Below, one piece after another: positions 4,495 through 25,115 of a stretch of 64,000 bases of DNA. The notes beneath the pieces are model-generated. The model saw nothing but the letters and a program-made list of their open reading frames with translations. It was not told the DNA's origin and did not search any database. The stretch is from the IMG/VR virus record IMGVR_UViG_3300032356_000182, positions 31,739 through 95,738 of that record; one strand, 5' to 3'. A program made the translations under genes and the position numbers. Within the stretch, counting starts at the first letter, position 1, and each line of letters starts with the position of its first letter. The stretch is from a virus.

Positions 4495-6492
4495 ATGACA
4501 AGAGATTCTCATAGTTTTTTTCGCGAATGGCTTTCTTCTAGTTTAACGAAGAGCTTAGGAGGTTTAGGCTCTGGTCATTATGCTCATGCGGGGCGTCCAG
4601 GTTTACGAGGAGGATCAGCGCCTAGTAGAAAAAAAGCTACCATATCTGGAGAAAATCACCCAGCAGCAGATATTCGAATTGTTATCGGGAAATCTGAGCA
4701 TCTTCCAGAAGACAAGCGGTCGTCGAGTAAGCGCCAAGCTTTGGCTAAAACTATAAGAGATATGTTGTTTAGTATTAATCCGGCTTATTTGCAAGGATTG
4801 AGAAAGATAACAACAGATCCTCTTCCAGGTCAAGGAGAGTGGCCTCGCGATATAGGCGGATACTATACTCAATATGCTGATATTCATTTGAATGTTGCAG
4901 CCCTCTCTGGCGAAGACGAGGAGGAAGATATCAGACAAATTCTTTTGCATGAGATTGGCCATCATGTGACACTTCGGCTTGGTCAGAAAGATCCGAAAGA
5001 TTATGCTGGTCTTCGTGATATATGTTATCTGGATAGTAAAGATACGGTTTTCACGCAGCGGAAGCTAGATAGTTTTAAGAAAACCGTCCCTCTTGAGAAA
5101 GATGCTGCTGAAGACTATCTAATTGATTTTGGTTTGCGTCCTTATTCTCTAACGAATAGATTAGAGTTTGCCGCTGATGTTTTTGCTGTGATGATGCTTG
5201 GCGACCCTCTCAGGAAGACAAATCTGGCAAAGATGCTTGGCTTTGATAATCTAGAAGGTATCTTTCGTGTTGATGTTCCTCTATCAGGATATGGTCTTCC
5301 GAAGGTGGTTAAGAAGTATGAGCCTCAGATAGATGATTTAGGAGAGCTTGTTTCTTCAGTTTTGGCTCTCGGCGGCCCCGGTTCAGGCTTTCATGGCCAT
5401 GCGGGTCGTCCTGGTAAAAGAGGAGGCTCCGCTCCTAGAAGTGACTTCGCTAATGCATCTGATGAAAAGGAATTTAGAGATTTAGTTTTTAGGGAAAGAA
5501 GGTCGAAAGAGTCTAAAAAGTCTTATGAGTTTGAAAAGAACAAGCATGATTTTAGAGTTTTACTGAAGCTTATTGATGATAGTGGGGGTCGAGATTTTCA
5601 TCAGCAAGTTGCAGATTGGGGCAGATATGAAGGTCGTCTGTCTCCAGAGCGCGAGGAGATGCGGAGAAGTCTTGCTAATTGGGAATCTAAATTCCATCTT
5701 GATATATCTAGATTGCTAAATGGAAAGATTGCTGACGACTCTCAGCTTACGGCGTATGGAAGTATAAGTGAAGCTGAGCGGGATATCTCTGGTCTGGACG
5801 CTGCGTTTAGGGAAGCTCCTTCTCTGCCTCATGGCATAATTGTTAGAAGAGGATTGATGGCCGCATCTAAGGCGGCGGCTACTTTTTTGAGTGCAAAGCC
5901 TGAAGATCTTGTAGGGAAGATTTTGCTGTGTAAATCGTTTGTTAGTACTACGATAAGCAAAGATGTTGTTAGGGATTTCTCTCGAGCTGGCTTGTTGGGG
6001 ACGAAAACGGTCACTTTTAATATTAAAGTCCCGGCTGGTGAGAAATTCATTGCAGTGTCTAGTGCCGAATCTGAGATTCTGTTAGATCGAAATCTGCAGT
6101 TTGAGATTGAAGATTTTTCGATTACTTCTGGAGAATATCAGGAATACAACTATACGCTAAAGGTTGTCCGAGGAAAAATTCCAGATATTGAGCTTTCTGA
6201 GCCAGCTGTTTTCCTCGGCGGTCCTGGATCAGGTTATCACGGTCATGCTGGCCGCCCCTCTTTCCAGGGCGGTCCTGCTCCGAGAGGTGTTGGATTCGTA
6301 GAAGAGAGAGAAGAACAGGCACCTTATTCTGAAAAGCAGCCAGCTTTGTCTAAGCCTAGTGTATTGGATGATTTTAGAGATGTTTTGAAAGCTTCTTTGC
6401 TCGTGAGGCTCAGAGCTTGTAAGCCGAATAGTCGTCTGGCTCGGAGATTAAGAAAGATATCAACCTGCCTTGATGCGGCAGAGGAAAGGTAA
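4495..6492 (+). CDS. Tagged effector polyprotein 1: tag-HExxH metallopeptidase-tag-R-S-E ADP-ribosyltransferase-degenerate tag-basic tail
   Basis: Tags at 4555, 5368, 6214; LLHEIGHH; IIVRRG / FVSTT / ESEILL (VIP2/C3-like ART triad). Confidence 0.85.
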   Translation: MTRDSHSFFREWLSSSLTKSLGGLGSGHYAHAGRPGLRGGSAPSRKKATISGENHPAADIRIVIGKSEHLPEDKRSSSKRQALAKTIRDMLFSINPAYLQGLRKITTDPLPGQGEWPRDIGGYYTQYADIHLNVAALSGEDEEEDIRQILLHEIGHHVTLRLGQKDPKDYAGLRDICYLDSKDTVFTQRKLDSFKKTVPLEKDAAEDYLIDFGLRPYSLTNRLEFAADVFAVMMLGDPLRKTNLAKMLGFDNLEGIFRVDVPLSGYGLPKVVKKYEPQIDDLGELVSSVLALGGPGSGFHGHAGRPGKRGGSAPRSDFANASDEKEFRDLVFRERRSKESKKSYEFEKNKHDFRVLLKLIDDSGGRDFHQQVADWGRYEGRLSPEREEMRRSLANWESKFHLDISRLLNGKIADDSQLTAYGSISEAERDISGLDAAFREAPSLPHGIIVRRGLMAASKAAATFLSAKPEDLVGKILLCKSFVSTTISKDVVRDFSRAGLLGTKTVTFNIKVPAGEKFIAVSSAESEILLDRNLQFEIEDFSITSGEYQEYNYTLKVVRGKIPDIELSEPAVFLGGPGSGYHGHAGRPSFQGGPAPRGVGFVEEREEQAPYSEKQPALSKPSVLDDFRDVLKASLLVRLRACKPNSRLARRLRKISTCLDAAEER

Positions 6493-6686
6493 TCAATCTT
6501 TTGAGGAAACAGCAGATGATCTAGAAAATCAACTCGGTCAAGCTAAAAATCTGAAAAACCATAAGCCAAAATCAGAATAGAGCGATTTTTTAGTCTTTAG
6601 ACATGCTTATTTTCAAGCTGTTGTTTTATTTGATTGCCTTAAAACTAGATCTTTAAGAAAAATCTAAAAGGAAATAAAAATAAGTT

Positions 6687-6908
6687 ATGTCTTCATCTTG
6701 CGATAATGGATTTATAGGTTGTCCATCTTCTAATTGTCCGCGGGATAAATTAGCTAGACTCGGGCTTGTTAGAAATAAGCCGGGCATCTATCTCTGGTGC
6801 AAAAACTGTCACCGAGAGATAGGCTTTACTTTTGCGGAGCTCTTAGCTAGATTTGAGACTGATGATTATATTGAAGAAAAAGCTAGCGAGCTTTCTAGGC
6901 GTTTTTGA
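6687..6908 (+). CDS. Small zinc-ribbon protein, Mu Com-like
   Basis: CPSSNC...GIYLWCKNCHREI pattern resembles Com-family zinc fingers. Confidence 0.55.
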   Translation: MSSSCDNGFIGCPSSNCPRDKLARLGLVRNKPGIYLWCKNCHREIGFTFAELLARFETDDYIEEKASELSRRF

Positions 6909-23392: not shown

Positions 23393-23405
23393 GGGAGGTA
23401 GAAAC

Positions 23406-25115
23406 ATGCGTATTCTAACTGATGGAGGAAAATACATAACCAGAGATAAAAATCGTAAAAATAGTAGCAAATATCTTCATGCTTTGAGGTTGTTGCTGAG
23501 ATGGAAAAAATTTAGGAAACTTGGAGGTCCTGGCTCGGGTTTTCATGGACATGCCGGACGTCCAGGTTACGTTGGGGGCTCTGCACCTTCTGGAGAGAGC
23601 ATGTCTGGTAATGAGAATGTTCCGAAAGAGAAAGATGCGGAATATCAAGCTTCTACGATAGATGAATATGCTTCAAAAGAACTTTCACGGTTTAGAATAA
23701 AAGATGAGATTGAGAAGCATCAAGTATCTGGTTCGCTATCTTCAAAGACGGTTGGGCTTATTATAGCGAATGGCCGGGCGGTGCTTGAAAATCATGCGAG
23801 CGCTTTGAGTTCAGATACTAGAGGTCTTGCAGAAGGAATTCTTGATAGTTATCGTGCTGTCCTGCTGGAAGGCTTGAGAGATGGATCTCTTGCCGATGTT
23901 TCTACTGGTGATTTGGATTTTGTGTTAAGCGATTCGATAGAGAAGCTGATCGTGCAAGAGATTGAATCAAGAAAAAGAACGCTGGGTGATCACGGTATTC
24001 GACATGCTATTTCAAATGCAAGAAATTCTTTAGATATACTGAATTCTTTAGCAGAAGGTGGGCAGAAGATAACCGCACGAGATAAGTTGATAGCTTTGCA
24101 GACTCAGCTTATTCATGATGTAGGTTTTGTCGCTGAGAGTCAGCGGAAAAGCTTTGATAATGAAATTCATCCTGAGATTTCGGCTGAATATGCTAGAAAA
24201 CCGGAATATGAGCGAGTTTTCGGAGAGAAGTTTAATGATTTTTTAGAGACGGTTAGAACTCATGATGGCGTTGATATTGATTGGGAAAGAGAGCCCGTAA
24301 AATCAGCGGTTAGGACAGCAGATAATTTTGCTTTGTTTTCCAGAGAAAAATTGCCAGATTTGTTTAATCGGATTCCTGGAGCTCTTGATAAATTAGCTCA
24401 GCTGCAGTTAGCTATTGCAGGAAATAAGGCGCAAGAGGTTTTGCCTATAGTTAAAGCTGATCTGCATAGGCTTATTGATAAAAGCAATTTGGATAAGAAT
24501 TTGAAAGAAGATCTGCATCATGCGGCTGATGAGGTTAGCATAATCACAGGTAAGTTTACTCTTGGTATGGTAGCTGGAGCTTTTGACTCTTTTTCTTTTG
24601 ATGATGGTGTTCTTGATATTTATCTCGTTCAGCGCCCAGATAGAGAAATCTTGAATGGTCTCTTTGACTTAGGGGAAAGACAGTTCAATAAATTTATCAA
24701 AGCCTATGAAGCTAAGGGAAGTTTAGATTCTGGCTTAGAGCTTAGTAGAGGTGGAAAGAAAATATATAGAGTCGTTACTAAAGCAGAAATGGGTTCTAGC
24801 GTTTTGAGTTCTTTAGCTTCTGCCAGTGTTCGGCCATTACTGGCAAAAGCTGTTCGGATGATTGATTTCTCTAAAGTTAGCAAACGAAATCGACAGGCTG
24901 CTTTCAATGCCATTAGCAAAGCTTTAATAGATAAAGCTACGCCGAGCGAAATCGCAGAGATAAAGAATCTCATCCTATCTGGCAGAGATGCTAGTTCTAT
25001 ATTAGGCTTCAAGCTCACAGCTAAAGAGCAGGAATATATCTACTCTAAAGTTGAGCTAATGGCTTATTTGAATGCAAACGCGAGGATATTGCTAAGAAAA
25101 TCAAGATTAAAATAA
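23406..25115 (+). CDS. Tagged HD-superfamily phosphohydrolase
   Basis: Tag at 23520; DHGIRH...IHDVG...HPEIS...THD...ADN metal-binding pattern. Confidence 0.8.
   Translation: MRILTDGGKYITRDKNRKNSSKYLHALRLLLRWKKFRKLGGPGSGFHGHAGRPGYVGGSAPSGESMSGNENVPKEKDAEYQASTIDEYASKELSRFRIKDEIEKHQVSGSLSSKTVGLIIANGRAVLENHASALSSDTRGLAEGILDSYRAVLLEGLRDGSLADVSTGDLDFVLSDSIEKLIVQEIESRKRTLGDHGIRHAISNARNSLDILNSLAEGGQKITARDKLIALQTQLIHDVGFVAESQRKSFDNEIHPEISAEYARKPEYERVFGEKFNDFLETVRTHDGVDIDWEREPVKSAVRTADNFALFSREKLPDLFNRIPGALDKLAQLQLAIAGNKAQEVLPIVKADLHRLIDKSNLDKNLKEDLHHAADEVSIITGKFTLGMVAGAFDSFSFDDGVLDIYLVQRPDREILNGLFDLGERQFNKFIKAYEAKGSLDSGLELSRGGKKIYRVVTKAEMGSSVLSSLASASVRPLLAKAVRMIDFSKVSKRNRQAAFNAISKALIDKATPSEIAEIKNLILSGRDASSILGFKLTAKEQEYIYSKVELMAYLNANARILLRKSRLK

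Follow-up and report, generated by a model that had tools for sequence, protein, structure and literature searches.

Seven genes in the head and packaging region of a viral genome carry a short peptide header that probably marks cargo borne in the capsid. The genome is IMG/VR record IMGVR_UViG_3300032356_000182 (95,738 bp), which has direct terminal repeats and a completeness rated at 100%; the stretch analysed here (hereafter the window) comprises its bases 31739-95738, i.e. 64,000 nucleotides. Six-frame scanning found the 23-residue tag LGGPGSGxHGHAGRPGKRGGSAP in 15 copies in seven open reading frames (ORF1 to ORF7) within positions 4495-25115 of the window (Table 1). The tag is the local form of a widespread 20-residue header, GG-x-GSG-[NH][FHWY]-GH-x-GRPG-xx-GGS. 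Our preferred explanation is that the header is recognised inside the prohead, where the head protease most likely cleaves it, by analogy with the capsid-targeting sequence (CTS) and the protease gp21 of phage T4; taken as a whole chain, this explanation stands about evenly between true and false.

All 15 copies named in the original prediction were recovered by a fuzzy six-frame search on the + strand, and a tag profile run over the whole 95,738-bp genome returned the same 15 sites and no further copy. The DNA pattern of the tag core gave 13 matches, compared to 0 expected from 100 shuffles, which rules out chance or a simple repeat as its origin. Of the 23 columns, 13 are invariant and 5 nearly so. 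At the nucleotide level the copies share 61-96% identity, with most pairs at 61-85%, and several synonymous codons are used at nearly every codon position. The many synonymous differences between copies show that it is the peptide that selection maintains, and the same divergence rules out recent duplication alone as the origin of the tag. The expectation of a portable peptide on unrelated enzyme modules is borne out.

Two pairs of copies are embedded in longer, recent duplications. The helix and tag at 8607-8744 match 16139-16276 over 138 nt with 90.6% DNA identity, and the leader and tag at 12200-12314 match 14048-14162 over 115 nt with 94.8% identity. In both pairs the similarity breaks off precisely at the tag's 3' end, and unrelated modules stand downstream, indicating that the tag is a joint where modules were swapped in practice. 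The tag had been said to open a module every time, which holds for 13 of the 15 copies. The exceptions are the copy at 6214, after which 69 residues remain, and the copy at 16209 (copy 10, in ORF5), where GGSAP is followed by the stop codon. The latter looks like an orphan header remaining after module loss; the next ORF (16445-16837, 130 aa, Cys/His-rich) is in a different frame and shows no similarity to the module after the twin tag in ORF2.

Beyond this phage, the family logo reads [hydrophobic/basic]-GG-[P]-GSG-[N/H][F/H/W/Y]-G-H-x-GRPG-[E/K/Q][V/R/I]-GGS-[A][P], with a Gly/Ser/Ala-rich stretch after it. In IMG/VR, the degenerate DNA pattern for GSG..GH.GRPG..GG matched at least 114 loci with at least 204 in-frame copies, with up to nine per locus among the matches listed. 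With a profile of the 15 copies, at least 3,212 cluster representatives scored E ≤ 1e-3 in a search of 1.84 billion proteins; the longest has 3,154 residues, and as many as nine stretches were matched in one protein. The IMG/VR and protein-cluster matches rule out the tag as a private invention of this phage. In 36 long viral records, 1-20 header copies each were found, clustered on one strand.

Header copies also occur in contigs assigned to cellular genomes or metagenome-assembled genomes (MAGs). Of 80 such loci, 38 passed the strict motif, giving strict copies in 38 contigs, four archaeal MAGs included. Their assignments comprise Clostridia, Lachnospiraceae, Dehalococcoidia, Acidobacteriota, Elusimicrobia, Proteobacteria, Omnitrophota and other groups. 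Pattern matches in high-GC actinomycete contigs were mostly chance, i.e. Gly/Arg-rich look-alikes that fail the strict motif. The contigs L146 and L162, binned as Methanomicrobiales and Bathyarchaeia, share the 'GSGHHGHAGRPG' header variant of the window; MAG binning of viral contigs may be unreliable. Among the phages in INPHARED, the sole tblastn match was the MuF protein of Arthrobacter phage Kovu, and a 28-aa tag query returned nothing, which is not evidence of absence because the BLAST low-complexity filter probably hides the tag.

Placement of the header follows a regular scheme. In 223 proteins with 637 copies in total, most copies (505) are internal, 127 are located in the N-terminal 70 residues and just 5 near the C-terminus; the median spacing of successive copies is 229 aa, about one domain. 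In the 14 residues upstream of the header, L, K, R, I and V are enriched 1.3-1.6 fold and G, P and H are depleted, and the helical hydrophobic moment of this segment is 0.318 compared to 0.267 in control windows (p 3e-7). When modelled with AlphaFold2 (AF2), the header had a predicted local distance difference test score (pLDDT) below 50 in two contexts, the ADP-ribosyltransferase (ART) of ORF5 and a natural protease-header-cargo-scaffold protein. In the ORF5 model, the ART core exceeds a pLDDT of 90, both tags fall below about 50, and the stretch before the second header forms a helix at residues 308-326. Based on the upstream composition, the AF2 disorder and helix and the placement of copies, the unit consists, in this order, of a short leader or basic amphipathic helix, the header (predicted to be disordered), a flexible Gly/Ser/Ala spacer and the module.

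The cargo of the header is diverse. Pfam domains found on tag-bearing proteins are ADPrib_exo_Tox, ART-PolyVal (PF18760), DRAT, PARP, MPTase-PolyVal (PF18818)/SprT/M48, ParB, LigT/2H, zeta toxin, GNAT, NUDIX, HD and PI3/4-kinase, and some of these proteins also have Phage_Mu_F, Portal_Mu or Phage_portal_3 domains. PF23802 and PF22014, which appeared in relatives, were rejected as models of the tag, being ordinary DUF domains. Judged by its domains, the header cargo corresponds to the domain set of the 'polyvalent proteins' described by Iyer et al. 2017 (Iyer, Burroughs, Anand, de Souza and Aravind, J Bacteriol; PMC5512222). Phage-type polyvalent proteins and tagged proteins alike string several modules together (ARTs, zincin MPTases, ParB, 2H, zeta toxin and other effector domains), have MuF and portal genes as neighbours and are predicted to be carried along with the DNA. 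The window shows polypeptides with two or more unrelated domains (ORF1, ORF2 and ORF6), the typical repertoire and adjacency to head genes. In contrast to the polyvalent proteins of that study, the modules of the window are divided among seven ORFs, every module has a separate header, and a fusion to MuF is absent; the main text of the study makes no mention of a conserved header or linker.

The profile search with a tally of downstream domains and neighbouring genes, proposed along with the original prediction, was carried out, and the header proved to be widespread and linked to head genes. MuF was detected in 26 of the 36 long tag-bearing records, with a tag at most 5.6 kb away in 24 of these 26. 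Among the two nearest untagged ORFs of tagged genes at viral loci (n = 141), MuF was found 20 times, TerL 14, portal 13, DUF2213 3 and capsid 2 times. The nearest untagged ORFs in the cellular contigs (n = 67) gave MuF 10, DUF2213 8, cement 4, portal 3 and TerL 3, and no conjugation family was present near the header in these contigs among 25 listed of 34 matched families. The association with head and packaging genes thus extends beyond this genome in viral and cellular contigs, and the refuting condition named with the original prediction, a tag without association with head modules in other genomes, does not refute it. In P0010 and in a 1231-aa ORF of G005, the header directly follows a MuF domain. 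This resembles the MuF polymorphic toxins, in which toxin-like cargo of the packaging module is likewise tied to MuF (Jamet et al. 2017, BMC Biol; PMC5576092); that study does not describe the motif. A difference is that the MuF-like protein of the window (18397-19554) is untagged and has no recognisable toxin, and that the tagged ORFs have no MuF domain.

According to the preferred explanation, the tagged products would enter the assembling prohead, either alone or, in relatives, fused to MuF, portal or protease/scaffold. There the header would be read as a linear motif, with the head-maturation protease as the likeliest reader; the one encoded here is a Mu gpI-type enzyme, whereas most relatives have a DUF2213 protease with the T4 gp21/assemblin fold. 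The protease would separate the modules from one another, and the freed ARTs, PARP-like enzyme, zincins and other modules would be ejected with the DNA at the next infection. The location of genes for host-targeting enzymes, such as Alt-like ARTs and a PARP-like domain, among head genes would be explained by packing of these enzymes for use in the following infection, as established for T4 Alt and the internal proteins. Three observations weigh against a mere separator: the header is N-terminal on free-standing proteins, C-terminal copies are almost absent, and about 20 residues are near-invariant in very distant phages.

T4 packages Alt and internal proteins via an N-terminal CTS, which is removed by the prohead protease gp21. 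Like the CTS, the header is a short N-terminal peptide found on unrelated proteins that are made with the head genes, and an ART with matches to Alt-like PHROGs is among the cargo. A head protease is encoded in the genome as in T4, here the Mu gpI-type PF10123 ORF of the window; the gp21/assemblin fold is that of the DUF2213 model of a relative. The T4 CTS has 10-19 poorly conserved residues, occurs once per protein and ends in L/I-x-E, whereas the header has 20 near-invariant residues, stands before every module, lacks L/I-x-E and is common to phages of many phyla. It is not a single N-terminal peptide, as 505 of the 637 copies are internal.

A head protease was recognisable in 24 of 37 tag-bearing records (DUF2213 in 20, Mu gpI in 2, S78 in 1 and ClpP in 1). 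The first impression that tag-bearing phages lack head proteases was overturned by the DUF2213 proteins, which belong to PHROGs annotated 'head maturation protease'. The DUF2213 domain model of a relative (pLDDT 93-98) is nearest to T4 gp21 and the herpesvirus assemblins. In natural fusions (7 of 120 relatives), the header stands 7-40 residues past the conserved end of the protease domain, GACSxEMGCG, where it opens an inserted cargo located before the scaffold part. The same slot after the protease holds HD..GRF or GN(N)QYT motifs in other relatives and nothing in short ones; 'LIGNGNNQYT' or 'HGNQYT' and 'HD..GRF' were seen there in P0236, P0237, P0241, P0244, P0255, P0257, P0290 and P0305 (relatives of L202:537-2663:-). 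Several header families may serve one role.

Several observations weigh against cleavage by the head protease. In 13 of the 37 records, 5 of them at least 92% complete, seven Pfam/PHROG models detected no protease; this weighs little because the head regions are nearly unannotatable with PHROGs, the phages being too divergent. The candidate readers span at least four protease families, and 20 invariant residues are far beyond what known head proteases need. Cleavage follows L/I-x-E for T4 gp21 and falls between A and S for assemblins, and the header has neither consensus. A cut at N-terminal copies that follow leaders of 9-20 residues, e.g. in ORF6, would free merely a tiny peptide. In the AF2 model of the natural fusion, the header is not docked on the adjacent protease domain (pLDDT about 35), which gives no information on cleavage in trans. 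Finally, no isolate phage with proteomic data was found to carry the tag.

A possible, though rather doubtful, alternative is that the header acts as a docking or address peptide without being cleaved. With or without the helix, it would bind a conserved part of the inside of the head, for which MuF, portal, capsid lumen and scaffold are candidates, and load or hold the module, or pass it to the exit channel, as the phage counterpart of an encapsulin cargo-loading peptide. The grammar of conserved peptide, flexible spacer and cargo mirrors such peptides, which are also short and conserved, serve diverse enzymes and belong to a shell of the HK97 fold; they are usually C-terminal, differ in sequence and have been shown to bind the shell lumen, whereas binding by the header is hypothetical. 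Conservation over 20 residues suits a binding epitope better than a cleavage site, and the predicted disorder of the header, MuF as the most frequent neighbour and the N-terminal position of the header in every free-standing tagged ORF of the window, once after 9 residues, are in line with docking. A single address per polypeptide would suffice, yet the header is repeated before each module. It is also found directly after MuF and protease domains and in portal-domain proteins, all of which are built into the head already. Both points weigh against a mere loading address. A fixed peptide on varied surfaces is moreover implausible, given that capsid, portal and MuF are highly divergent and the header near-invariant, and no PDB chain contains the motif. 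The capsid-loading or ejection signal that was originally proposed thus holds as a portable, head-linked peptide and is not supported as a pure address.

It is unlikely that the header is a processing site for the zincin metallopeptidases of the cargo itself, or one used after injection. Two tagged zincin modules are present in this genome, and MPTase domains have been proposed to cut up polyvalent proteins (Iyer et al. 2017; PMC5512222), with which such processing is in line. MPTase-PolyVal was found in just 1 of 37 tag-bearing records, however, and a recognisable peptidase family in 1 of 120 listed tagged proteins, and N-terminal headers on single-module proteins would serve nothing.

Even less probable is a module-swapping joint or a plain flexible linker that has no reader. 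The two duplications ending at the tag and the different module order of ORF1 and ORF2 are what a joint would leave behind, and the header resembles the pre-toxin motifs VENN (CdiA) and DPxGL (Rhs) of polymorphic toxins in being short and conserved, in marking the start of a variable module and in swapping at the motif. These motifs occur once, before the C-terminal toxin of a secreted protein, whereas the header is repeated and tied to phage heads. Most copies, with 61-85% nucleotide identity and scattered synonymous changes, would be a poor substrate for homologous recombination, the peptide is kept across phages of differing codon usage with hosts in distant bacterial phyla and archaea, and invariant His, Arg, Pro and Ser residues would not be expected of a plain linker.

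A reader outside the head, i.e. an AT-hook-like GRP core tying the cargo to DNA, or ribosomal pausing or 2A-like skipping at module boundaries, is very improbable: GRP is invariant and has a K-R flank in this phage, conservation in bacterial and archaeal viruses calls for a universal reader, and the order of helix and Gly/Pro-rich turn is reminiscent of arrest and 2A peptides, but 64% of copies have E or Q two positions past GRP and the residue preceding GRP is G, so that the basic surroundings of an AT-hook (R-G-R-P-K/R) are absent family-wide, and 2A-like skipping has, to our knowledge, no precedent in prokaryotes.

In the window, every long ORF from 4495 to 27913 is on the + strand. The gene order is ORF1, a 73-aa ORF, ORF2, a 213-aa ORF, terminase, ORF3, a 100-aa ORF, ORF4, ORF5, a 130-aa ORF, portal, the MuF-like gene, ORF6, ORF7, protease/scaffold, cement protein and capsid protein. 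The alternation of tagged genes with terL, portal, MuF and protease is therefore as first described, and the seven tagged ORFs sum to 13.4 kb. From their + strand position among head and packaging genes, the seven are presumably late genes. The MuF-like ORF has a weak match to TIGR01641 (SPP1 gp7) at aa 166-199; a Pfam scan found nothing above threshold. The protease/scaffold ORF matches phrog_976 and phrog_328, both annotated 'head maturation protease'. At about aa 243 of this ORF, 'RKK-LGE' stands directly after the acidic linker, where the coiled-coil scaffold part begins; it resembles the 'KK-LGG' opening of tags, a single case that is perhaps coincidence.

Table 1 Tagged ORFs, tag copies and head/packaging genes of the window (aa, amino acids; PDE, phosphodiesterase)
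Feature	Position	Strand	Match or basis
ORF1, 665 aa: leader, tag, zincin (HEIGHH), tag, ART, degenerate tag, 69-aa tail	4495-6492	+	
73-aa Cys-rich ORF (zinc-ribbon-like), between ORF1 and ORF2	6687-6908	+	
ORF2, 887 aa: leader, tag, ART, tag, zincin (HELGHH), helix, tag, 298-aa module	6979-9642	+	
Large terminase (gpA type)	10259-12031	+	PF05876, E 2.2e-20
ORF3, 491 aa: leader, tag, acidic region, PARP catalytic domain	12186-13661	+	PF00644, aa 309-459, E 2.2e-15
ORF4, 248 aa: leader, tag, 203-aa module without family match	14031-14777	+	
ORF5, 349 aa: leader, tag, ART, helix, tag, stop	15231-16280	+	PF03496, E 6.7e-16
Portal (Mu type)	16854-18344	+	PF06074, E 1.1e-44
MuF-like minor head protein, untagged	18397-19554	+	CDAC...CPVHVNCRH signature
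ORF6, 1266 aa: tag, ART, tag, 381-aa module, tag, ART, tag, ART	19592-23392	+	
ORF7, 569 aa: 38-aa leader, tag, 508-aa module	23406-25115	+	HD / SidE-PDE-like lead
Head maturation protease (Mu gpI type), acidic linker and coiled-coil scaffold in one ORF	25237-26448	+	PF10123, E 2.2e-12
Decoration/cement protein and major capsid protein	26476-27913	+	weak PF09956 and PF11651 matches; position
Tag copy 1, degenerate, 4 substitutions	4555-4623	+	
Tag copy 2	5368-5436	+	
Tag copy 3, degenerate, 69-aa tail after	6214-6282	+	
Tag copy 4	7051-7119	+	
Tag copy 5	7903-7971	+	
Tag copy 6	8677-8745	+	
Tag copy 7	12249-12317	+	
Tag copy 8	14097-14165	+	
Tag copy 9	15324-15392	+	
Tag copy 10, extreme C-terminus of ORF5, orphan header	16209-16277	+	
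Tag copy 11, leader of just 9 residues before	19619-19687	+	
Tag copy 12	20477-20545	+	
Tag copy 13	21719-21787	+	
Tag copy 14	22505-22573	+	
Tag copy 15	23520-23588	+	

At least two unrelated effector or enzyme domains share a polypeptide in ORF1 (zincin and ART) and ORF2 (ART, zincin and a further module), and the module order differs between the two. ORF6 combines three ARTs with one module without family, and ORF3, ORF4, ORF5 and ORF7 are single-module proteins. Seven ARTs of the R-S-E type had been assigned. Six of them match PF03496 (ADPrib_exo_Tox) as well as Alt-like PHROGs and form a set of paralogues; the seventh, the last module of ORF2 (8746-9639), is at most a candidate, with no detectable similarity to the six (E 1.1) and a DRAT-like language-model lead (0.91). 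The PF03496 match of ORF1 covers aa 425-545 (E 1e-9), and that of ORF6 extends over three stretches (E 1.2e-50), with Alt-like PHROGs matching as well. The AF2 model of the ORF5 ART is nearest to the folds of Certhrax, CDTa, iota, VIP2 and C3 (E 1e-10 to 1e-13 for Certhrax, CDTa, VIP2 and C3).

The PARP-like ART was confirmed by the PF00644 match of ORF3. Both of the predicted HExxH peptidases have the motif and are 31% identical to each other, with SprT/Zincin model matches that stay below threshold (a weak one at aa 44-291 of ORF1). For the HD hydrolase proposed in ORF7, the searches gave a SidE_PDE/HD-CE language-model lead (0.90) and no Pfam or PHROG match. Two modules described as putative His-type ARTs (14166-14774 and 20549-21691) received no support in Pfam, NCBIfam, PHROGs or PDB sequences. 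Two homologues of ORF4 were found in all. The 'Cake' matches obtained in searches with the modules without family are an artefact of a short repeat. Taken together, domain matches point to a cargo load that is unusually heavy in ADP-ribosylation, with six ARTs, the PARP-like enzyme and a possible phosphodiesterase. The PDE-like module of ORF7 adjoins the ART-rich ORF6, and such a pairing of ART and PDE recalls, by analogy, the SidE chemistry of Legionella.

Elsewhere in the window, the downstream structural region encodes a family-2 glycosyltransferase (32173-33072), a B12-binding radical SAM enzyme (36960-38285) and a 1058-aa leucine-rich-repeat protein (48472-51648). The G + C content is 0.51-0.56 at 52000-58000 and 62000-64000, compared to about 0.40 in the remaining window, and the GC skew is negative in the final 2 kb.

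Virion-borne polyvalent effectors are known, while the header itself appears to be undescribed. Searches for the tag motif strings in the searchable literature returned no paper, and no Pfam, NCBIfam or PHROG model covers the tag; together with the blank PDB search, this agrees with the earlier statement that no characterised function of the tag is known. The present analysis adds the association with DUF2213 proteins (gp21 fold), the protease-header-cargo-scaffold fusions, the predicted disorder of the header in two contexts, the statistics of the upstream helix and the breakpoints at the tag end.

A few proteins are known to be injected by phages along with their DNA, such as T4 Alt and internal proteins, P1 Dar and the N4 virion RNA polymerase (vRNAP). 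How the large and diverse set of polyvalent effectors is sorted into capsids is a question on which the header bears, as it offers a concrete peptide for loading or processing. It also provides a means to list candidate virion-borne effectors in metagenomes from sequence, modules without known family included. We tentatively suggest that the header may be an autonomous, portable handle and that its reader may be a component shared by tailed-virus heads in bacteria and archaea. If it is portable, it could serve as a handle to load chosen proteins into phage particles. If the handle reading is true, about 20 residues and a helix would be enough for capsid loading of any protein and its delivery with the DNA, and thousands of uncultured phages would arm their virions by one shared code.

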